A DNA stretch of 64,000 nucleotides from a virus. Positions within the stretch are counted from its first letter, which is position 1; each line of letters begins with the position of its first letter. The stretch spans positions 4,421 to 68,420 of IMG/VR virus record IMGVR_UViG_3300025929_000003; one strand, written 5' to 3'. This document shows positions 3,030-49,121 of this stretch, piece by piece. The translations under genes were made by a program, and so were the position numbers. The notes beneath the pieces were generated by a model. It worked only from the letters and a program-made list of their open reading frames with translations, did not search any database and had not been told where the DNA came from.

Positions 3030-5129
3030 CTACACAGATTGCATGACGAACCACTCTGCCTCTTTGGATGTTTCTTCGTGGGTCGGCAACCTACTAAATT
3101 TCTTTTCACAGGCGATTAAACACCATCCCATGGCGCAAAGTAGGTCAAATTTCGTTCTGTTCTTTTTATTCCCCTCCAATAACTGTAATATGATGCGTTT
3201 ATGCTTCAAAGCGTTGCTGTACATCATCACATAGTGGGCAATTGCCATGAAATACTGGTCAATGGTGTCGGTAGTAGCGGGAGTGCCAATCTGGTTGGTC
3301 GTAGAATACCTTGACTTTTCATCCATAGTACTTTCGGGACGTGCCATTAAAAACTCTGCATATCCTCGTTGCCTAAAGTGTTTTTTGATGGCTTGCTTAT
3401 TGTTTTCCACATTCATCTGTGTGCCATAGTAAACGTGCATCATCAGCATATCCTCAAAAAATACATCGGGGTCATCCTCACGGCAAAGGTAATCACATAC
3501 TGGCTGCTTAGAACGCCATTCCCAGCCCCAATCTATAGGTGCACCGTCTTGTATTTTAGCGCCATCCTCATTGTCGTCAAACAATCGCATGATAACACCC
3601 GCACCTTTAGACGCTCTCGCTTGGTCAACTACTGAATCGTGCTCATAAGGGTCACAACCACCCCTAAACTTATGAAGATTACCGGGATATCGTTGACCGC
3701 CTGAGTTTATGACATTGTTATCCTCTCCGTCTTTGAGCAATTGTGATACTTCAAACTTACCATTCTCATCTTCCAAAAATATCACACGACTATCAGGGGT
3801 ACCACCTGACCAAATGAAGTTACCGCGCACCGTCCATTCCTTTTCTTCAAAGCCATAGGATGCCGGGAAGTTCAGGCGCTTTAGAATATCGGTTAGTCGC
3901 TCGATATTAAATGCAGATTGTGAACCCGAGGGTGTTAAAGCATCTTCAATCGTGCGTGGCGTCTTACGCAGCAAGTCCGTAATCATGGTGAATTTCTTGC
4001 GCTTCTTTAAGTTTTCGATTTGGTTCTCCAAAAACTCTTTTGCCGCTTCTTTCATCGGGAAGCCAAACTCATCTTCTTCCGCTGCATCTTCGTAGGAGAT
4101 AAAGATGGCATATAGCCCTGTTACCGTTCTACCGTTCTCATCACGCTCATCGGGGTTACTGTCTTTGTAAAACTCGCCCACTTCTTCAATCTGTTCGTCG
4201 TTTACTTCCTCAATAGTAGTTTCACCCCACCCCTTACCGACAATAAGTGCCCCGTGGTTATAGTGCATACAGGGTTTTACTTTATCCCAATTCTTTACCA
4301 AACTCATTTTTTCCAGTTTCCCAGCCTCGTTGATAATCCAGCGGTTCAATTCAACCCTATCATAAGCGCCAGCGATAGACGCCTGAAAATCTATCCATGA
4401 GTTCATCTCAATCTCAGAGTACACCACTTCTTCTTCTTCGACGCTTGCAGCACGTTCCCGCACCTTTTTATCGGTGTTTACCGAAGATGGGTACATATAC
4501 TCCAACTTATCCTTTGGCATTTCAGAGCCGCGGTGTACGGGCTTCATAAACCATATGAGGTGCTTGTTAGCAAAGGCAATACGGTCAAAGTTTTCGGCAG
4601 CGGCGTCATCATTTTTGGACTGCATACCACCACGGGTATTCCTTACCCTGCTAATAAATTCCAGCATTAAACCCAAGGTGAACTCAGTTTTACCGATACG
4701 CCGTGGCCCGACAAGGAAAGCGCCGTAGCTGTTAATGTCGCGCACCACCATGTCCCAAAACAAAAAAATCAGACACTGAATGTATCTGAAACCAGGCTGG
4801 CTACTATTACTCATCATTGTCCAGTAGTTCAAGAACCAGTAATAGGGGCCGGTGATGTAGATGGGCTTGCCGTTTATCAAAATCCAAATACCGTTATAGC
4901 GTTTGTGGTATTCGCCTTTGATAAATTCCTGTTCTTCGGGGGTGATTTGGCTTTTGTACTTGCGGAGAGACTTTGGTATTTCTGTTTTGCGAAATTTTTG
5001 TTCTGCTGAGGGTAATCCGTAGTTCACCATTTCTGATTTTGGTGGCATGACAGGCAGCGGGATAGTGTACTTATCCAGTTTGATATAGCCTGATGGCTTG
5101 CTGTAATCAAGGTTATATAGTTTTCCCAT
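3030..5129 (-). CDS. terL: Terminase large subunit
   Basis: Walker A-like VGPRRIGKT, Walker B-like WIINEAGK, nuclease-domain motifs GGCDPY and FDLLCAMG. Confidence 0.85.
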   Translation of the reverse strand: MGKLYNLDYSKPSGYIKLDKYTIPLPVMPPKSEMVNYGLPSAEQKFRKTEIPKSLRKYKSQITPEEQEFIKGEYHKRYNGIWILINGKPIYITGPYYWFLNYWTMMSNSSQPGFRYIQCLIFLFWDMVVRDINSYGAFLVGPRRIGKTEFTLGLMLEFISRVRNTRGGMQSKNDDAAAENFDRIAFANKHLIWFMKPVHRGSEMPKDKLEYMYPSSVNTDKKVRERAASVEEEEVVYSEIEMNSWIDFQASIAGAYDRVELNRWIINEAGKLEKMSLVKNWDKVKPCMHYNHGALIVGKGWGETTIEEVNDEQIEEVGEFYKDSNPDERDENGRTVTGLYAIFISYEDAAEEDEFGFPMKEAAKEFLENQIENLKKRKKFTMITDLLRKTPRTIEDALTPSGSQSAFNIERLTDILKRLNFPASYGFEEKEWTVRGNFIWSGGTPDSRVIFLEDENGKFEVSQLLKDGEDNNVINSGGQRYPGNLHKFRGGCDPYEHDSVVDQARASKGAGVIMRLFDDNEDGAKIQDGAPIDWGWEWRSKQPVCDYLCREDDPDVFFEDMLMMHVYYGTQMNVENNKQAIKKHFRQRGYAEFLMARPESTMDEKSRYSTTNQIGTPATTDTIDQYFMAIAHYVMMYSNALKHKRIILQLLEGNKKNRTKFDLLCAMGWCLIACEKKFSRLPTHEETSKEAEWFVMQSV

Positions 5130-11871: not shown

Positions 11872-11901
11872 CAAATATAGTTTATTTTTACAACTTGTCA
11901 A
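11872..11901 (-). promoter_or_regulatory. Promoter of the replication operon
   Basis: Minus strand TTGACAAGTTG...AAACTATATTTGAACCATG. Confidence 0.6.
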
Positions 11902-11917
11902 ATTTTATTTCAAAAAA

Positions 11918-16831: not shown

Positions 16832-16922
16832 TAGTATCTACACAACAAACTTACGGTATATTTATTAAACTACCAAATATATATTTAAAAAGATACTAAC
16901 TACTATTTGAGTATACCTACAC

Positions 16923-39560: not shown

Positions 39561-39993
39561 ATTTGTTTTTCCAAGACAATTTGCCATAGCGATATTTCCC
39601 ATTACTGTCTGTCTTTTTGCTTTTATAATAAACCTTGTTATCCTTGCCTCCTAAAACTTTTGATAAGTTCTGTATGACCGCCGTTTTATCCTTCGCACGC
39701 TCGTCTTCATATTTTTCTATTAACAAATTATAGGTTTCACCAGTAGATAATTCTACTTGTTCCACATCAAAAATGTAATCTACTCGTTTATTCAACGTCT
39801 TAATTGTATGCCATACGTTAACGTCTTGTTGAATTTTTGTAATGAGGTTCACGCCCTCAAATAAAGGCGTTTGAGAGCCTATTGGAAAGGTAGTAATTTT
39901 GATAGGCGTTGTAGTGGTTAGAAACTTTATTCGGTCGTTGATATATTTTTTTTTCTCCAATAAAGTACTAATGGTCTTTTCTGTTTCCACCAA
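39559..39993 (-). CDS. AT-rich basic hypothetical protein
   Basis: 144 aa, isolated, directly upstream of the structured RNA. Confidence 0.55.
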   Translation of the reverse strand: MVETEKTISTLLEKKKYINDRIKFLTTTTPIKITTFPIGSQTPLFEGVNLITKIQQDVNVWHTIKTLNKRVDYIFDVEQVELSTGETYNLLIEKYEDERAKDKTAVIQNLSKVLGGKDNKVYYKSKKTDSNGKYRYGKLSWKNK

Positions 39994-41504: not shown

Positions 41505-41540
41505 AGGGCGGTCAACTCAAAAAGTAGCCGCCCTTTTTTT
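41505..41540 (+). terminator. Intrinsic terminator
   Basis: AGGGCGG...CCGCCCT followed by T tract. Confidence 0.7.
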
Positions 41541-41850
41541 ATTGTTTGTCATCAACAATCTTTACACCAAACATCTTGCTAATACCCTTAACCACTGGCG
41601 TAGCAAATAAAGTAAAGAAGTAAAATATGTGCTGAGTAAATTCAGTGTTGAATATCTTATCAGCCACAATCCACGCTAAAAAACTGGTCGTAACGATAAG
41701 ATAAATGTCAAAAGCTGCATTTGCCCATTTAGGAGTCGGTAGACTAACCGCAGCCAGCCCAAATGTTGTTGTAGTTGGGTCTACCTTTTTGGCGTCTTGC
41801 GTGTTTGCTGGCTCTGTGCCCGGTAGTGGTGTTTCGTCTTGATTTGCCAT
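41539..41850 (-). CDS. Holin-like membrane protein
   Basis: Two TM helices, basic C-terminus, immediately after the endolysin. Confidence 0.55.
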   Translation of the reverse strand: MANQDETPLPGTEPANTQDAKKVDPTTTTFGLAAVSLPTPKWANAAFDIYLIVTTSFLAWIVADKIFNTEFTQHIFYFFTLFATPVVKGISKMFGVKIVDDKQ

Positions 41851-41852
41851 AA

Positions 41853-42491
41853 TTATACAATGTTTGCTAATTTATTTAATTCTTCTTTACTGCCCATGAA
41901 ATAATTGAGGTCTAAACCGCCGCCCTTAATAGCGCCACCAAAAGTCCCAAATTGGCTGTACTGCCAAAAATCAAGTTTAGTGTACCCTTTGGGTAACCCC
42001 GGTTGGGTTGACTGATAGGAAGCTAACCATAATGGATTATTAGGCCATGAATGGTCTTTAAGATAGTCCCTAAAGAAATTCTTATAGCTATATATCATTG
42101 GCTTGCGACCTGTAGCCTTTTCAATAATCAACAACCAGTCGGTTATTAATTGAATAAAGGCATCTTTATCTTTCGTAATACCACTATTTAGCGATGCTGG
42201 CACCTGATCTTCCACATCGAGCACAGGCGGTAGCACCCCCGGCTTTGAAAAGTCTATGCCGAACGATAAAAAGTTATCGGCCTGTTTTTGTGCACTATCA
42301 ACTGCAGTCAGAAAGTGATAAGCCCCCCTATATAGGTTTGTGGTCTTAAGATGTTGCCAATTCTCATTAAACTTTGGGTCTCTGTATCCAGCGCCTTGAG
42401 TTGCTTTGCAGAACACAAACTTAATATCGGGCGAAAGATTAGCCCATGGTACGGGGCTGTTGAAGTGCGAAATGTCACAACCTTTTATCAT
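41853..42491 (-). CDS. GH25 muramidase endolysin
   Basis: GCDISHF, FVFCKATQG, RGAYHF, LDVED, FWQYS, LDLNYF. Confidence 0.92.
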   Translation of the reverse strand: MIKGCDISHFNSPVPWANLSPDIKFVFCKATQGAGYRDPKFNENWQHLKTTNLYRGAYHFLTAVDSAQKQADNFLSFGIDFSKPGVLPPVLDVEDQVPASLNSGITKDKDAFIQLITDWLLIIEKATGRKPMIYSYKNFFRDYLKDHSWPNNPLWLASYQSTQPGLPKGYTKLDFWQYSQFGTFGGAIKGGGLDLNYFMGSKEELNKLANIV

Positions 42492-42562: not shown

Positions 42563-43078
42563 ATGGAAGTTTTTTTTGATATAAATGGATTTGATAACTA
42601 TCAATTGTCTAAAAGCGGCTTGGTAATAAGTAAAAAGTCTAATCGGCTTTTAAAATGCGGGTTAATGGCTAAAAGAAAGGGGACATCGTCTGGATATTGG
42701 GGTTTTTTGTTAAAATCTTCTTTGACTGGAAAATTCCAAACACAATATATTCATCGATTATTAGCCACTCACTTTATTCCCAACCCCGATAATAAGCCAC
42801 AAGTTAACCATATTAATGGAATTAAGACCGATAATAGGTTAGAAAACTTAGAGTGGTGCACTTCCAAAGAAAACATTATACATGCATGGGAAAGCGGGTT
42901 GTGTAATACTCATTCCATAAAAAATGGGACTTCACTAATAAAACCTTGTAAAATAAATGGATTAGATTTTCCATCTATCAATGCCGCGTCCTGTTACTTT
43001 AATATATCTTACTATGCTTTGAGTTCTTACGTTAATCATGGCAAGAAATTAAAAAAATACAAGGCTTTTTTTAATTAA
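42563..43078 (+). CDS. HNH homing endonuclease, inverted inside the lysis cassette
   Basis: [37 protein letters not shown]; AT-rich; TATTTTTG box just upstream. Confidence 0.9.
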
Positions 43079-43131: not shown

Positions 43132-43278
43132 TTAAGGCGCTACGTACACAATCATTCCCCAAACAAGCAAACATATCGCCAGATAGAGATAGTCGCTCCT
43201 GCGCCACGTATAGTTGGCGTAATAGTATACCATCGCTATACATATCCACCCCATAATCAGTATTGGTATCTTTGACAT
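43132..43278 (-). CDS. Small 2-TM protein (48 aa)
   Basis: Hand-found MSKIPILIMGWICIAMVYYY...LAICLLVWGMIVYVAP; TGATG coupling. Confidence 0.55.
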   Translation of the reverse strand: MSKIPILIMGWICIAMVYYYANYTWRRSDYLYLAICLLVWGMIVYVAP

Positions 43279-43457
43279 CACTTTGTGCGATTTACCTGTT
43301 CCCGTAGTTCCCTGTTTTCTTCCCGCAATTCCTGATACTGCTGGTCTTTCAATTTCTGTATGCCATCATTCACCTCGCTTTTCACCCACACACGTATTAG
43401 CCACATTAGCCCGCTGAATAAGACAGCCCCCAATGCAATCCATGCGCCCGCATCCAT
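43278..43457 (-). CDS. Small TM + coiled-coil protein (59 aa)
   Basis: Hand-found MDAGAWIALGAVLFSGLMWLIRVW...ELREENRELREQV; TAATG coupling to the REC gene. Confidence 0.6.
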   Translation of the reverse strand: MDAGAWIALGAVLFSGLMWLIRVWVKSEVNDGIQKLKDQQYQELREENRELREQVNRTK

Positions 43458-43864
43458 TATTGTTTAAATTTAGCCTTGTCCAACAATTTAGGTTTTAGTG
43501 CGTCTACTTTAGCTCTTAACTCCTTTAGCCACTCTATATTGTGCGTCTTCTCCACCACGGCATCAACCCTGCACTCTATCAGCTTCATTAATATCTCTTT
43601 ATCGAAGTAAGCGGACATAGCTACGATGTAACAACCAGGATTAACGCTCACAAACGTTTTAATAGCCTCTATGGCGTTGTAACGAGCCACCCTGATGTCT
43701 GTTATCACTAAATCAACATCCTTGCTGAAATCGCTTAAAAATGGCTCAGGGGAGTGGTAAGTGCGGATGTCGTAGGCATACTCATCCGAAAAGATATTCT
43801 TAATGAAGTCTAAGACAATACTATCGTCATCCAATACGGATATCAGTATTTTTATAGGTGGCAT
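43457..43864 (-). CDS. Single-domain response-regulator receiver (CheY-like)
   Basis: Acidic pocket LDDDS, phosphoacceptor DLVITD, AMSA, conserved K in VVEK. Confidence 0.85.
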   Translation of the reverse strand: MPPIKILISVLDDDSIVLDFIKNIFSDEYAYDIRTYHSPEPFLSDFSKDVDLVITDIRVARYNAIEAIKTFVSVNPGCYIVAMSAYFDKEILMKLIECRVDAVVEKTHNIEWLKELRAKVDALKPKLLDKAKFKQ

Positions 43865-44175
43865 TATCTATCCCGCTTTATTTCGTACAACAATTTCATT
43901 AGTTCGTCCCTATCCTTAATCCTGCGTTCCTCGTTTTCACGAATCGTCTTTTCAAGGTCTTCAATTTCGGGCTTGATTATTGTCTTAACAGAATCGGATA
44001 GATTTCTATCCATTCTTTTCGCTACTAACTTAATAATCCCATCGATACCCTTGTATAAAATGGCTATAATGGATAATTCTTCCCAGTGGTCTTTCAGGAA
44101 GGATATGATATTATTGGTTTCTTGTGGTGCCTGCATGGTCTTTGATAGACTTGAATAAACCATGTCTGTACCCAC
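43864..44175 (-). CDS. Hydrophobic segment + coiled-coil protein
   Basis: LSIIAILYKGIDGIIKLV then a heptad tail; TAATG coupling to REC. Confidence 0.6.
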   Translation of the reverse strand: MGTDMVYSSLSKTMQAPQETNNIISFLKDHWEELSIIAILYKGIDGIIKLVAKRMDRNLSDSVKTIIKPEIEDLEKTIRENEERRIKDRDELMKLLYEIKRDR

Positions 44176-44509
44176 TAATCAATATCATTAAGGTTGTTAT
44201 TACTACGCCTGTTAACATAAGTTTGGTGTTATATGTTCTCTCCAACACTTTATTGTAGTTCAAAATATAAGCCAAACCTAACCAAATGTTATAAGTTGCC
44301 TCAATAATTAAAAATTGTACATCCAGCCACGTTTTCTTTTCGATAAAAATAAACAATAAAATAAATGCGGCCAGAAAAAACCGCTCAGATGCAAAGTAGT
44401 AGGTACACCACCACTCAGAGGCATAATGCTCGCCAGTAGGGTCGTGCATGTAAAACAAGACGCTACCGACGTGCAAAAGCATTGTTAATGGTATTAACAA
44501 TCGTTTCAT
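44111..44509 (-). CDS. Four-TM membrane protein
   Basis: Four hydrophobic stretches in 132 aa. Confidence 0.7.
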   Translation of the reverse strand: MKRLLIPLTMLLHVGSVLFYMHDPTGEHYASEWWCTYYFASERFFLAAFILLFIFIEKKTWLDVQFLIIEATYNIWLGLAYILNYNKVLERTYNTKLMLTGVVITTLMILISGYRHGLFKSIKDHAGTTRNQ

Positions 44510-44512
44510 TCC

Positions 44513-44659
44513 CTAACTCTCTGATGGTGGATGACCGGGATGCCATGTGCCATCCCCATCTGTATAACCATCTTCGCCATCGGGCCCCTCTACTGGATAA
44601 GTGTATGGCGGTGTACCATCGACCTGTTCTTCTTGCTGTTTTGCTTTTTCGTTTGCCAT
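44513..44659 (-). CDS. Small acidic Gly/Pro-rich peptide (48 aa)
   Basis: Hand-found MANEKAKQQEEQVDGTPPYTYPVEGPDGEDGYTDGDGTWHPGHPPSES. Confidence 0.55.
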   Translation of the reverse strand: MANEKAKQQEEQVDGTPPYTYPVEGPDGEDGYTDGDGTWHPGHPPSES

Positions 44660-44679: not shown

Positions 44680-45165
44680 TTACAATTGAAGTTCCTGTCC
44701 AGATACGTAGCTAAACGTGCTGGTGCCCGAAGTTACTAATTTTACATAATAACCTTGGGGTATAAATGCCGCTAAACAGGTTGTTTGAGACTGCGATGTA
44801 TTTAATCCGACGGTTAGCGTGCCTGTATTGTTATTGGTTGCCGTAGCAACAGTCTTATAGGGGTCTACCGCACCGTTATCCTTAGATATCTGTAAATTGA
44901 TAGTTCCAGACTGACCACCTGCTAAAGATAATGTACTTGTAATATTCAGGCTGTAAGACGCCATAATATCTCTGGTGGCACTTGGTATGTACGCGGTATT
45001 AAACGTGCGTGTAACTATTGTATATGCCCTTGGTACAGGGTTATATTCAAAGGTCTTAGCAAAGATAAATACAGAGCACACTATCGTGAGCAAAAACATA
45101 ATAAGCATATCTCGCCTTGCTGACTTAGCAACCTTGATTTCTGTGGGTGTGATTTGGTTTTTCAT
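44680..45165 (-). CDS. Tail-fibre-like beta domain with N-terminal TM/signal segment
   Basis: RTFNTAY..SATRD..SYS..ITSTLSL.GGQ.G...FIPQGYYV.L. Confidence 0.55.
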   Translation of the reverse strand: MKNQITPTEIKVAKSARRDMLIMFLLTIVCSVFIFAKTFEYNPVPRAYTIVTRTFNTAYIPSATRDIMASYSLNITSTLSLAGGQSGTINLQISKDNGAVDPYKTVATATNNNTGTLTVGLNTSQSQTTCLAAFIPQGYYVKLVTSGTSTFSYVSGQELQL

Positions 45166-45176
45166 AGTAATAAGGC

Positions 45177-48100
45177 TTAATGATTAACCCATCCAATGGA
45201 AGGGGCGGTGTTAAACTGTCTTGATTGATACTGAACTGTTAAGGTGTTTGCGCCCGACACGGTGTTTACAGTCACGGTATTGGCGCTTGCATCTGTTTTA
45301 GTCACATAGATGGTATACCCAGCAAATGTGGTTGAAGATGGTAGTGTTATAGTAACGTTACCTGCAGTAGCATCCACATAAAGGTCAAGGGTTGATTTCT
45401 TGCCTGTAGCGAAGTCGCCAGAGATTATAGTATAGTTTGCAGTCTTGGATAAAATATTATCTGTAGCGGCACTAATGTCGCTTAGCAAAGCCATTGTACC
45501 GTCCTTATCTGGGGTTATATATGTTCTGGTAGATGTATTGTTTGACTGAAAGAAAGCAGGAGATGAACCAGAAGCAGATGAGGGTGCCATCATGAATGTC
45601 TTTCCGTCTGAATTAACTTGGAATGTGGCATATCCTGTATTTGTAATTACAGTTGAACTTGGTCTTAAATTAAGCGTGCCAACTATAGATACAGTTTGAG
45701 ATTTGAATATAGGTGTTGCGTTGATGTACTGTGTAGTAGAGGCAACCTTATTAAACGTTAGTGTGCTGTCTGCTACAATTGTTCCTGTGGTTGTTATTGG
45801 TCCGCCAGTTAGCCCATAACTTGTCCCAATACTTGTAACAGTGCCGTTCCCCGTGCCATATCCCTGCGCTTTTACAAATGCCGTGGTAGCGATTTGCGTA
45901 CTGTTTGTACCCGTAGCTGCTGTAGGAGCTGTAGGTATACCGGTAAAGGCAGGAGAGGCTAATGGCGCATAATTAGACAGATCGCTTGTTTTTGCAAATA
46001 GGTTAGTAGCAACAGCACCCATTTTACCAGTTACGCCTATTTTTACCATAACACTATCTGTGGTAGATGTGCCGGTTGTGGTTTGAACTACCGTTGTTGG
46101 TGTGATTATACCGGTTAACTGATTTGTATATTCTGGCAGTGTACCTGCAGTATTAACTCGCATGTAATATCCCGCCGGTCCTAAGCCTAAGTAAGTTAAC
46201 TTACCTGTTGTTGATTTAAGTGGAATAGAACCAGTGCCGAACCCCGTAACATCAAGAGTTAAATTCCTAACATTTACGGCTACATTACCATATTGTATTT
46301 TTGACAATCCAGTACCTAAACCCCCTGGTAAGTAACTTAGTGCTACCAAAGGAGTAGTGGGGCTACCCCCTGTTTGTGCTACGATGCGGGCGGTGTCTGC
46401 ATCTGTAGCTATCTTAAATGAGCCGAAATTGGTACCGCCCGACTGATTGTAAAGCCTTATATCTGTTTGGGTTGACGTTCCGTTAGGTATTATATCAATA
46501 GCTTGGCCGCCGTTTGTGATCAAACTGGTAAGCTGTAACCTTGCGTATATGGCGTTAGTGCTTTGGTATAAGCCCATTTTAGATAACCTCACTGCCGTAT
46601 TACCAAAATTCCATGAACTTAAGGCAGAACCAAATGAACTGCCATTTAAACTAACATTTCTGATAGGATTGGTTGTACCCGTTCCTATATCCTGATAATT
46701 AATAAAAGCGGTATCGGATGCTGCTGAAATTTTAAATGAACTATTATTAGTAATATCGGATTTATTAAACCACCTGGTTGCCGTACCAACGCCTGTGCCG
46801 CTGGTAAAATAATCAGCTAAAAACTGTTTATCTGTCCGTAAGGGATATGTGCGCAAAATATCAGCACCGCTTGATACTCCGGGGTATAATGCTACGCTAT
46901 TCGTACCACCAATAACACTTATTCCATTTCCGTCTATTGTGGCAAGGTTTGTTACAGTAGTAGTGCCATTTCGGACGCCGTAAAAGTCAAACGCGCTACC
47001 TAATGCACTGGATGAATTGGCCTCATTGGTGCGCATAACCATTTTAATAGTATTGGTTTCTCCACTACCATTATACGCATTACCGTTAAGACTACGGATA
47101 GTTGCCGCATTGCCTAATGTTGACGGAGATGTATTGCTTGTGCCAGCGTTATAGGCAATATCTACAGGTGTGTCCGAAGCTGTACCCCGGCGCTTGATGT
47201 TGTTAAAATTATCAATATTGGTTTGAGTTGATGCGGTTGCATCCAATTGCTTATTATAGGCATAATCCCCAATCGTATTATTACTTAACACATAGTTTGT
47301 GCACGTATCTATTTTAAAAGCAATAATACTACTTGTAGTAGGTGAGATCAGGCTATTAGCCCTGATAATTAGCTTTGTAGTGTTTGAGGCATAGATGGCG
47401 GGATATGCCGCGGTAGATATGATATTATTTGAAACGGTATTATTAGCCCCTGACGACTTAAACCTGATAGCATATCTCCCCGGTGCTGGAAATTGATTGC
47501 CATCTACGATATTGTTTGAACAGGCGTTTCTAATATAAAGCGCATCACCTATTATAGAATAAAAGTGATTTGTAGCTATAGTTGATGAAAACACACTATC
47601 CAGTACCATACCATTTTTACACGCCCCAAACTGATTGTTTGAAATGTTGTTTAAAGAGCCTTTTATAATACCTACTGTGTCTAAAAATGCGGCTTCAGAA
47701 TAAGATATATGCGTACTATTAAGACCGCCTTTCCACCCTAAACGGCTGTTTTCTGCGCCGGACTTGTCAAACTGGCTGTCATTCGCCTTTTTCAGATCAA
47801 AACAAATCCCAAAATCGGAAACATGAAACCCTATAAAGCTATTAACGCCGGGGTTCCCGTGCGTATTACTATAAAGTTTAAGGCCCGCTGTAGTATCTGC
47901 TGCTGACCCCGAATACTTGCCGACAACTAAAAAATCTTTAAGTGTATTTCCTTGACACCTGAACGCCCCGGCTTCATCTGTTGTGATACCATCAGTATGA
48001 TTATAAAAGAACAGAATAGATAGCGGGGCAAATTTAACACTATCTCCCGGTGATGTACTTTGATATGGTAGAAATCCGCTTTCTCCTTTAATTACCGTAC

Positions 48101-49121
48101 CCTGACCTATTTTTATACGGTCTGATAATCCAAAAGAATAGGGATATTTACCGGGAATATAAACGCTTTTAGCCATTTTATAGGCAGCGGCATAAGCAGC
48201 CAAAAAAGATGTACGGCTGTCTGTTCCGGTCCGCGTTACAGTTCTATTAGAAACTAACCAGTCAGCTTTAGCACCGTACCACTGTATATTTATCGCATCG
48301 GCATTAGAAATGTCTCTTATCCAGTATTTACCACCGGAAGAGCTGAAAACAATACCATTATCCACTGGATACGGCGATGTTGCAGACAAATTGAAAGTAC
48401 CACCCCGTAAACTATCTGTCACAATTACCGTTGTCGCCGTTCCTGCATAGCTTAAAAGTTGAGTTATTGAAGCTAAATGTATTGCACCTACCGTTCTTTT
48501 AATGTAGTTAGCTGTATCTGCTTTAGTACCTAAAGAGACTGTGACTGCTGCCCCTGTAGGTAACTTTCCATCATTTGCTAAAGTACTTTCTATATTACTT
48601 GCATCTACTACCTGATTGCCTCCCTGTGATATGCTTGGAGAAGATATTGAGCCATTAAATATAGCGTGCCCATCCCCAAAAATGCGTACCGTGGGGGTTC
48701 CTGAGCCTGTATAGTTGCCTATATAAAGTGCCTCGTGGGTGGCGTCACCACCCTCTATCTTTAAACCAAACCCAGTGGGGCTGTTGTTATAAAAGTAACC
48801 CCCGTAAAGGTTACTACCTGTAGCCACCCCATGCCCAACTTCTGAATACTCAGCAAATAACCCCTTGCCCGTAGAAACTAAATCTACATCGTGCGCAGCC
48901 CCCGTATATGGCACATAGCCCAAGCCAGCATGGTTTATCAAGCTATCCACCTGTTGCTTGGTGTACAACTGCATAAAACCGGGCACACCCATATTGAACC
49001 TATACATCCACCCCAAGCCCGTAGGGGCGCGTTGTAGGGTATTACCAACAGTGACATACGTTTGGGCGCTTGCTGCGCTCAGAACGGTTAAAAATGCGAT
49101 TAAGGCTATTAGTTTTTTCAT
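45177..49121 (-). CDS. Tailspike/tail fibre with pectate-lyase-like beta-helix and N-terminal signal peptide
   Basis: INIQWYGAKAD...DSRTSFLAA, parallel beta-helix repeats (N..V.GN.F, N.I..N.I), fibre repeats APLASPAFTGIPTAPT. Confidence 0.8.
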   Translation of the reverse strand: MKKLIALIAFLTVLSAASAQTYVTVGNTLQRAPTGLGWMYRFNMGVPGFMQLYTKQQVDSLINHAGLGYVPYTGAAHDVDLVSTGKGLFAEYSEVGHGVATGSNLYGGYFYNNSPTGFGLKIEGGDATHEALYIGNYTGSGTPTVRIFGDGHAIFNGSISSPSISQGGNQVVDASNIESTLANDGKLPTGAAVTVSLGTKADTANYIKRTVGAIHLASITQLLSYAGTATTVIVTDSLRGGTFNLSATSPYPVDNGIVFSSSGGKYWIRDISNADAINIQWYGAKADWLVSNRTVTRTGTDSRTSFLAAYAAAYKMAKSVYIPGKYPYSFGLSDRIKIGQGTVIKGESGFLPYQSTSPGDSVKFAPLSILFFYNHTDGITTDEAGAFRCQGNTLKDFLVVGKYSGSAADTTAGLKLYSNTHGNPGVNSFIGFHVSDFGICFDLKKANDSQFDKSGAENSRLGWKGGLNSTHISYSEAAFLDTVGIIKGSLNNISNNQFGACKNGMVLDSVFSSTIATNHFYSIIGDALYIRNACSNNIVDGNQFPAPGRYAIRFKSSGANNTVSNNIISTAAYPAIYASNTTKLIIRANSLISPTTSSIIAFKIDTCTNYVLSNNTIGDYAYNKQLDATASTQTNIDNFNNIKRRGTASDTPVDIAYNAGTSNTSPSTLGNAATIRSLNGNAYNGSGETNTIKMVMRTNEANSSSALGSAFDFYGVRNGTTTVTNLATIDGNGISVIGGTNSVALYPGVSSGADILRTYPLRTDKQFLADYFTSGTGVGTATRWFNKSDITNNSSFKISAASDTAFINYQDIGTGTTNPIRNVSLNGSSFGSALSSWNFGNTAVRLSKMGLYQSTNAIYARLQLTSLITNGGQAIDIIPNGTSTQTDIRLYNQSGGTNFGSFKIATDADTARIVAQTGGSPTTPLVALSYLPGGLGTGLSKIQYGNVAVNVRNLTLDVTGFGTGSIPLKSTTGKLTYLGLGPAGYYMRVNTAGTLPEYTNQLTGIITPTTVVQTTTGTSTTDSVMVKIGVTGKMGAVATNLFAKTSDLSNYAPLASPAFTGIPTAPTAATGTNSTQIATTAFVKAQGYGTGNGTVTSIGTSYGLTGGPITTTGTIVADSTLTFNKVASTTQYINATPIFKSQTVSIVGTLNLRPSSTVITNTGYATFQVNSDGKTFMMAPSSASGSSPAFFQSNNTSTRTYITPDKDGTMALLSDISAATDNILSKTANYTIISGDFATGKKSTLDLYVDATAGNVTITLPSSTTFAGYTIYVTKTDASANTVTVNTVSGANTLTVQYQSRQFNTAPSIGWVNH

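Follow-up and report, generated by a model that had tools for sequence, protein, structure and literature searches.

A stand-alone receiver protein encoded among small membrane proteins in the late region of an uncultured phage genome

The virus record IMGVR_UViG_3300025929_000003 is 71,233 bp long and carries direct terminal repeats (DTR) at both ends, which identifies it as a complete phage genome; a stretch of 64,000 nucleotides, bases 4421–68420 of the record (hereafter the window), was analysed in this study for a cluster of small genes built around a receiver domain protein. On the minus strand, the late arm of the window contains, in this order, genes for large virion proteins, a 1314-amino acid (aa) beta-helix tail fibre (45177–49121), a cluster of six packed open reading frames (ORFs) at 43132–44659, a GH25 endolysin and a 103-aa protein with two transmembrane (TM) segments. 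The six ORFs, all on the minus strand and at the positions given in an initial annotation made from the DNA letters, encode a 48-aa acidic peptide rich in Pro, Gly and Asp (44513–44659), which opens the module and belongs to no Pfam or PHROG family; a 132-aa four-helix membrane protein (4TM, 44111–44509), a core component; a protein with a long charged helical tail (up-coil), recognized by its ORF, hydropathy and weak homology, of 90 aa if read from the ATG at 44136 (43864–44136) and of 103 aa if read from the GTG at 44175; a 135-aa stand-alone receiver (REC, PF00072; 43457–43864); a 59-aa protein (down-coil, 43278–43457) with, by hydropathy, one TM segment and a charged helical tail; and a 48/49-aa ORF with two TM segments by hydropathy (43132–43278/43281), which is specific to the window.

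Three one-base stop-start overlaps were read directly from the DNA, TAATG between up-coil and REC, TAATG between REC and the 59-aa ORF, and TGATG between the 59-aa and the 48-aa ORFs, so that the six tightly packed genes with three such overlaps described in the initial annotation were all found in place. At least 26 nt are also shared by the 4TM and up-coil genes. Three ORFs of the cluster are shorter than 60 aa and would be skipped in a default ORF list, consistent with the remark in that annotation that three of the six were absent from the ORF track. The cluster is far beyond chance, since the same gene order is found in 12 independent REC-bearing contigs.

The REC protein scored 43.8 bits against PF00072 (cut-off 30.2), with a match covering profile positions 1–107 of 111, and the identical result was obtained when the genome was searched in six frames. 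The ESM Atlas model of the exact sequence showed a (beta/alpha)5 fold with a predicted local distance difference test value (pLDDT) of 0.90 and a predicted TM-score (pTM) of 0.90, and it superimposed on ten REC-containing clusters with TM-scores of 0.78–0.85. The protein consists of a single domain, with no output domain. A profile search over 5.8 billion proteins delimited its family sharply, with 42 clusters at 90–230 bits followed by generic receivers at 60 bits or less. Family members measure 111–142 aa (all but one 130–142 aa), and each contains the REC domain alone. The alignment used below comprised 41 sequences with a median pairwise identity of 36% and a minimum of 23%, which collapsed into only eight groups at 50% identity.

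The active site residues D12/D13, D56, S84 and K106 align with D10/D11, D54, T82 and K104 of Spo0F. In the 41 aligned receivers the phospho-acceptor D56, S84 and K106 are invariant, while position 12 is occupied by Asp in 38 sequences and Glu in three, and position 13 by Asp in 39 and Asn in two. Positions near the active site residues are also constrained: D+2 is Arg or Lys and T+1 is Ala or Gly in every sequence, and T+2 is Tyr or Phe in 38 of 41. Family-specific features are the invariant T55 and W112 and a near-invariant P125 in a C-terminal helix extension; the active site Lys lacks the Pro that usually follows it, and the aromatic switch site (Lys-3) is Val, Thr or Ile. This conservation argues strongly for D56 being a working phospho-acceptor site, and REC is probably phosphorylated on this residue because the complete Spo0F-like active site is kept. 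Work on D+2 and T+2 from the Bourret laboratory is said to associate the K/A/Y pattern (D+2, T+1, T+2) with slow autodephosphorylation, from which we infer that the phage REC may lose its phosphate slowly. The earlier description of a receiver with all catalytic residues and no output domain is borne out by the score above the Pfam cut-off, the intact active site and its strong conservation.

No match to HATPase_c (PF02518), HisKA (PF00512) or the histidine phosphotransfer domain Hpt (PF01627) was found at E ≤ 1 across the complete 71,233-bp genome, in a search whose positive controls were detected in 11–14 reference genomes. The initial observation that the window encodes no histidine kinase can thus be widened: the whole phage genome is kinase-less and, having neither kinase nor Hpt, leaves REC outside any encoded two-component system or phosphorelay. 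Alignments of the neighbouring helical proteins showed no conserved His, and for this reason their assignment as Hpt- or Spo0B-like phosphotransferases was rejected.

Relatives of REC were scarce in the other collections searched. By tblastn no match was found in 50,697 cultured phage records, and no relatives came from pattern scans of IMG/VR based on REC, its alignment or the 4TM motif. A scan of GTDB genomes with REC gave just a generic, 30%-identical receiver in a metagenome-assembled genome of Kiritimatiellae and no prophage copies, and a scan of JGI metagenomes added only two short contigs.

The neighbourhood survey was based on 12 REC-bearing contigs, namely the window, L002–L009, L011, and two loci (P0025 and P0007) known from gene tables only. 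All 12 resemble phage late regions, with genes for portal, major capsid protein, tail fibre, crAss-type ring proteins and endolysins. Wherever a sequence or gene table was available, the order was a large fibre, a 39–88-aa peptide, a 111–151-aa 4TM protein, one or two membrane-anchored helical proteins of 79–122 aa in the up-coil slot, and REC. A TM-coil of 51–87 aa lies immediately after REC in 11 of the 12 loci, two of these being judged by ORF size alone; the copies in L006 and L008 had been missed by gene callers and were recovered here, and L002 is the exception, with opposite-strand genes and an IS1595 transposase after REC. Between loci REC is 47–61% identical and its neighbours 16–35% identical, the latter still being recognisably homologous. 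The receiver is therefore encoded beside the same small membrane and coil proteins in a recurrent order, as the initial annotation led one to expect. Its sixth gene fared differently: the 2-TM ORF at 43132–43278 exists, but no counterpart was found in L003–L009, L011, L013 or L014.

Mobile elements were observed at the edges of the module, an HNH gene in the window (42563–43078, plus strand), an HNH_3 gene between fibre and module in P0025, and an IS1595-family transposase in L002 (9030–10028), which suggests that the module edge is a recombination-prone junction of the late operon.

To this set were added two distinct loci without REC, L013 and L014, drawn from more distant members of the 4TM family. 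Their gene order is fibre, anchored beta-domain protein, Cys-motif peptide, 4TM and up-coil, and the peptide, 4TM and up-coil are homologous to those of the REC-linked loci (E 1e-6 to 1e-24); the up-coil of L014 is 58% identical to a fragment from the REC-linked locus L005, and the 4TM proteins end in R/K-H-G-x-F-K-D. Both REC and its TM-coil are absent from the two loci, and an unrelated 69–73-aa protein with a TM helix is found in their place. These fourth-gene proteins (L013 6646–6867, L014 5625–5834) have one TM segment and a conserved tail, I-E-K-R-H ... R-E-N-T-S-V-L-S-A-L-K-T, and may represent an alternative regulatory subunit. Because the REC-less modules keep a homologous core, REC and its TM-coil appear as a cassette swapped into a wider module. 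The swap provides the strongest argument that REC regulates the module and that the down-coil acts as its tether. By the same evidence, and as a correction to the initial annotation, REC is an optional addition to a peptide, 4TM and up-coil core that exists without it.

The position of the 48-aa peptide is occupied by an ORF of 39–88 aa in all loci with sequence. The C-terminal sequence of most relatives is C-P-x-G-x-x-W-x(5-6)-C-V-D-D-P-G, with which the Cys-free window copy can be aligned. The two-Cys motif is present in the peptides of L004 (3662–3865), L006 (6143–6271), L007 (6054–6290), L009 (5265–5384), L013 (5795–6001) and L014 (4873–5004); a related form richer in Cys, C-x-C-V-W-V-P, is found in L002 and L008, and the copies of the window and L003 have lost the cysteines. 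None of the opening peptides has a signal peptide. The motif could form a disulfide hairpin or half of a metal site. Double-glycine leaders were also considered for the peptides and discarded, as no more than one or two sequences fitted them and genes for processing or export were absent. No evidence was obtained for the suggestion that the acidic peptide is a ligand, and the two-Cys motif of most of its relatives is missing from the window copy.

The AlphaFold2 (AF2) model of the 4TM protein (pLDDT 68) contains helices at residues 2–20, 32–55, 61–85 and 91–115 and a short basic C-terminal helix. Homologues are found in all loci and share the C-terminal motif G-x-R-H-G-[LY]-[FL]-K (G-x-R-H-G-L-F-K in the window). 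An exhaustive profile search with the 4TM alignment gave 114 representatives at 50% identity, nearly all of 119–132 aa and matched end to end. Fold searches of AFDB clusters and BFVD with this low-confidence model returned nothing under E 0.1, and the ESM Atlas look-alikes were under the lead threshold. When peptide, 4TM and coil proteins from several loci were compared with Pfam and PHROG, only coil-type noise of the leucine-zipper kind (DivIC, bZIP, ZapB) was obtained. The partner proteins thus belong, by these comparisons, to no described family.

The up-coil consists of an N-terminal hydrophobic or amphipathic segment and a long charged helical tail, and shows weak similarity to a 92-aa protein of L004 (E 2e-4). 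Family members from REC-linked loci are clearly homologous to those from REC-less loci (E 1e-9 to 1e-24), and the relatives have an unambiguous TM segment. In the window copy the hydrophobic stretch is short and interrupted by charges, which points to a membrane-associated protein without a clear TM helix; a coil protein is therefore present upstream of REC, as initially described, but its TM segment is not evident in this copy. Of the two possible starts, the ATG at 44136 (90 aa) is more likely than the GTG at 44175. In the window, at 44111–44175, the 3' end of the 4TM gene (R-H-G-L-F-K-D) shares its DNA, in another frame, with the start of the up-coil gene as annotated (M-V-Y-x-K-I-K-M), and equivalent overlaps are seen at 4209–4228 of L004 and 5726–5745 of L009. 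The conserved N-terminus of the up-coil may be a by-product of this two-frame overlap, in which case translation may really begin at the second Met.

An acidic N-terminus (M-D-A-G-A-W or M-T-T-E-N-W, for instance) and a terminal T-K are common to the down-coils. The N-terminal flank is acidic in all eight examined, with no Lys or Arg before the TM segment and Lys or Arg after it, and the six that were scored have a net charge of −1 to −2. Up-coils with a clear TM segment likewise have a Lys/Arg-rich stretch after it, and the 4TM protein has basic N- and C-termini. An N-out/C-in topology is accordingly predicted for the down-coil and, by the positive-inside rule, the module is predicted to have all its soluble parts in the cytoplasm, on the same side as REC. 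Cytoplasmic tails fit an action of REC on these tails and contradict an i-spanin function. The heptad signal of the tails was only modestly above that of shuffled sequences (p 0.03–0.39), so that the term coiled coil stands here for a charged helical tail that is probably coiled. A complex prediction with REC and both coil proteins gave a score of 0.00 which, in a run without controls, is no evidence either way.

An endolysin gene is located downstream on the same strand, zero to four genes from the module, in 8 of the 12 REC loci. The HNH gene of the window (42563–43078), identified as a homing endonuclease by PF13392 (E 1e-10) and phrog_59 (E 3e-42), lies on the opposite strand, inserted between module and endolysin, and is the sole part of the region with a DNA match in cultured phages. 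The window endolysin (41853–42491, minus strand, 212 aa) belongs to GH25 (PF01183, E 5e-40; phrog_291, E 2e-41) and has no N-terminal TM segment or signal. It is separated from the module by the 48-aa 2-TM ORF and the HNH insertion. A GH25 enzyme is also found in L007, after one opposite-strand gene, in L008, after one tailspike gene, and in the P0025 locus, after two genes. A PF00959 lysozyme follows the module directly in L005, and three genes intervene before the GH108 enzyme of L004, the CHAP enzyme of L009 and the M15_4 plus GH19 enzyme of the P0007 locus. That five types of endolysin occur near the module deserves attention. A conserved position beside lysis genes, which the initial annotation had made the test of its proposal, was accordingly observed in most of the loci.

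Each locus with an endolysin has its own 88–103-aa 2-TM protein immediately after it. In the window this is the 103-aa product of 41539–41850 (minus strand), a holin candidate by hydropathy and by its position right after the endolysin, and in L009 the corresponding protein matches the PHROG holin family phrog_2879 (E 1e-4). The window protein is homologous to a 179-aa protein of L006 (E 5e-12, with a common GISKMFGV motif), whose gene lies right after the L006 module, and in the REC-less locus L014 the genes after the module encode a 93-aa TM protein and, next, a homologue of the post-endolysin proteins. With a canonical pair of endolysin and holin candidate beside it, the module is an accessory and not the sole holin.

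The size, four helices and basic tail of the 4TM protein would fit a holin; yet three to eight genes lie between it and the endolysin, and the post-endolysin slot is taken by another 2-TM protein in every locus. Four members of the 4TM family gave no match to Pfam or PHROG holin families, and no significant fold match was obtained. Nothing found here supports the idea that REC gates a multi-component holin, each endolysin having its own 2-TM holin candidate outside the module. The TM-coils are not predicted to have the N-in/C-out topology of i-spanins, the charges flanking their TM segments predicting the opposite, and no signal peptide with a lipobox Cys was seen in the module ORFs read, no dedicated lipobox scan of embedded frames having been made.

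Upstream of the module, outside 43132–44659, a conserved neighbour gene (44680–45165, minus strand) encodes a protein of 161 aa that has a basic N-terminus, a single TM anchor (residues ~21–39 by hydropathy) and a beta-rich C-terminal domain like those of fibre ends. It matches the C-terminal end of the 359-aa profile phrog_31472 (E 2e-19) and is 47% identical (E 1e-37) to the 162-aa product of the gene upstream of the REC-less module in L014 (4361–4849). This protein is better conserved than any module protein except REC. It is predicted to be a type II membrane protein with its domain in the periplasm. In every locus the large beta-helix or fibre proteins beside the module have a Sec-type signal start (M-K-K-L..., a hydrophobic core, and A-Q or similar); they are encoded at 45177–49121 (minus strand) in the window, 4015–7170 in L002, 3347–6127 in L006, 1855–6042 in L007, 1045–4863 and 6615–8459 in L008, 1176–1763 in L011, 2857–5220 and 5220–5783 in L013, and 2688–4376 in L014. 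Virion fibres assemble in the cytoplasm, so Sec signals are odd in such proteins, which may be exported enzymes or membrane-handled fibres functionally linked to the module.

Clues to the host were few. Among sequencing runs, the one listed as holding the phage DNA is a microbial fuel cell metagenome, probably the source, and none was listed as holding its RNA. No type IX secretion system (T9SS) C-terminal domain was found in the fibres, and searches with the endolysin and the 161-aa protein matched unrelated phages only. The Bacteroidota-type promoter TTTG-N17-21-TAnnTTTG was found four times in the window against 2.8 expected, that is, without enrichment. Three of the four matches lie upstream of genes (11872–11902 and 16846–16877, minus strand; 39870–39901, plus strand), a placement that gives only a weak hint of the host. 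As for the virion, CrAss_Ring_1 and CrAss_Ring_2 (Pfam) are encoded just after the CHAP endolysin and holin candidate of L009 (10545–12402) and L003 has a match to an SU10-type major capsid protein, which hints at a crAss/SU10-like podovirus.

Spo0F is the best solved relative of the phage receiver (E 1e-10), and both are single REC domains of about 120–135 aa without output, with the motifs D-x-K/R-[VI]-P-G and T/S-A-Y (basic D+2, Ala at T+1, Tyr at T+2). Spo0F docks on helical bundles and works between kinases and the Spo0B phosphotransferase, whereas the phage has no kinase or Hpt and the helical neighbours of its REC have no conserved His; the identity is about 25–30%, and T55, W112 and P125 are proper to the phage family. 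CheY and DivK are also stand-alone receivers of matching fold that act through protein contacts after Asp phosphorylation, but they have dedicated kinases and targets (FliM for the former, DivL/PleC for the latter), whereas the phage REC is kinase-less and encoded among membrane proteins. In PorX-PorL (GldL, type IX secretion) a CheY-like receiver docks onto the cytoplasmic portion of a small motor protein in the membrane (PMC5005315, PMC10951265); PorX, however, has the kinase PorY and a large effector domain, and no homology to PorL was found in the 4TM and coil proteins. LytSR-Cid/Lrg resembles the phage arrangement in tying two-component signalling to holin/antiholin-like membrane proteins, but its control is transcriptional, through a DNA-binding regulator with a kinase, and it is a system of cells, not one encoded by phages. 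In jumbo phages, the divergent cREC is linked to enzymes of nicotinamide adenine dinucleotide (NAD) and ADP-ribose (ADPr), not to membrane proteins (PMC7824862).

Precedents for the control of lysis by added proteins exist in cultured phages. In T4 lysis inhibition, the holin T is antagonized by the periplasmic antiholin RI and the cytoplasmic antiholin RIII. In N4, gp62 and gp63 provide accessory holin regulation, gp62 facing the cytoplasm (PMC12642591). As in the module described here, small accessory proteins, some of them facing the cytoplasm and encoded by extra genes around the lysis cassette, are involved; in T4 and N4 they bind the holin and postpone lysis. They differ from the module in showing no sequence or family similarity to it and in lacking any domain competent for phosphorylation. 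The "Receiver domain" of N4 gp63 was considered as a two-component receiver and set aside as a coincidence of name. In the literature searched, no two-component receiver was described from the lysis or fibre cluster of a phage, and a kinase-less receiver within a phage membrane module is an arrangement not described before.

From these data we tentatively propose that the module is a membrane-tethered phospho-switch that tunes lysis timing in a manner similar to antiholins or lysis inhibition, a possibility that we hold with reserve. A complex made late in infection would sit in the inner membrane with its soluble parts in the cytoplasm, its core being the peptide, the 4TM protein with its basic tail and the up-coil. 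In the lineage of the window a two-gene cassette, REC and an N-out/C-in TM-coil, would have been added after the core, and the down-coil would tether REC to the membrane beside it, a role suggested by their co-occurrence and translational coupling. REC would receive the phosphate on D56 from a kinase or a phosphotransfer protein of the host, or else from a small donor such as acetyl phosphate; as the phage has no kinase or Hpt, the donor must be host-derived or a small molecule. The phosphorylation state of REC would change the packing of the coil tails and the 4TM tail, and the altered packing would modulate the separate downstream pair of endolysin and 2-TM holin, so that the breach of the envelope is set or delayed. 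An output in lysis timing is considered the likeliest on account of the position of the module, the precedents of T4 RIII and N4 gp62, and the modular addition of REC. The further claim that this would be the first phage lysis clock or lysis-inhibition switch to work through aspartate phosphorylation, with REC sampling the phosphodonor or kinase state of the host and with REC and TM-coil as an add-on gained and lost on a widespread module, is doubtful.

Several observations weigh against an output in lysis. Given the separate 2-TM holin candidate, a minimal lysis system can do without the module, and no module protein matches a holin, antiholin or spanin family in Pfam or PHROG. Tailspike or fibre genes stand between module and endolysin in L004, L008, L009 and the P0025 locus, and the L003 module, flanked by fibre and head genes, has no endolysin within 13.6 kb. 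The link to lysis is positional only, and any late-operon insert between fibres and lysis genes would look alike. The location in a lysis cassette given in the initial annotation thus stands in so far as the module is near an endolysin in most loci; it is equally part of a fibre cluster, with fibre or tailspike genes intervening in at least four loci.

Among the other explanations, the one that survives best, though it is unlikely, is an interference with host signalling. The tethered REC would serve a membrane histidine kinase or phosphorelay of the host (of an envelope-stress or a motility/secretion pathway, for instance) as a decoy or as a sink for phosphate, the TM-coils would only position it, a late-infection response of the host would be blunted, and the link to lysis genes would be incidental. 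The far better conservation of REC than of its neighbours (47–61% versus 16–35%) is what would be expected if its partner were a conserved host protein, and the intact Spo0F-like site is of the type that exchanges phosphate with helical-bundle partners in a phage that is itself kinase-less. Precedents are the docking of the PorX receiver on the PorL membrane machinery (PMC5005315, PMC10951265) and PIT4, a phage protein that targets two-component systems (PMC10714779). However, the module lies in the late structural and lysis arm, whereas host-takeover genes are usually early, and the existence of the core without REC makes REC look like a regulator of the module rather than a free-standing decoy.

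Improbable too, and placed after the former, is a role in superinfection exclusion or in envelope or receptor modification tied to the fibre genes, which REC would make conditional in some lineages; the module would block incoming phage DNA or work with the exported fibre-like proteins on both sides. The upstream fibre gene is the one invariant neighbour, fibre or tailspike genes are found on both flanks in several loci, the fibres and the 161-aa protein carry N-termini like Sec signals or anchors, and the partner proteins diverge fast, as in an arms race. Receptor-blocking exclusion genes (T5 llp, cor) adjoin genes for receptor-binding proteins, which also favours a role of this kind. Nevertheless, no similarity to known exclusion proteins was found, PADLOC-type families not having been searched; exclusion genes are normally early or lysogenic rather than at the end of the late operon of a DTR phage, and the module is predicted to expose almost nothing to the periplasm.

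Two explanations are very improbable. That REC is a structural pseudo-receiver, a folded adaptor of the membrane complex that is never phosphorylated, would agree with the lack of a phage kinase and of a Pro after the Lys, with Val, Thr or Ile at the switch position, and with the existence of non-phosphorylated receivers such as FrzS (PMC9811614), but pseudo-receivers typically lose the residues that are here invariant (D56, S84 and K106) or nearly so (the acidic pair) in 41 sequences of 36% median identity. A conventional cassette, in which the 4TM protein is the main holin, the coil proteins are i-spanin-like and REC is incidental, would account for the presence near an endolysin of TM-coil proteins and of a small protein with several TM segments and a charged C-terminus, but it is hard to reconcile with a 2-TM holin candidate after every endolysin, the absence of family matches, acidic N-flanks and basic C-flanks that predict cytoplasmic tails, opposite to those of i-spanins, and the lack of a lipoprotein partner gene within the module ORFs seen.

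Lysis timing is thought to be set by proteins only, through holin accumulation, antiholins and superinfection sensing. If the proposal made here is true, a membrane module wired to REC would give the phage a direct line to the metabolic or signalling state of the host at the time of release. The peptide, 4TM and coil module constitutes a sizeable unannotated family at a fixed site of the late operon in a clade of uncultured phages, and it shows a receiver recruited as a swappable cassette without its kinase. Such a module may let the phage time cell-envelope events by the state of its host.

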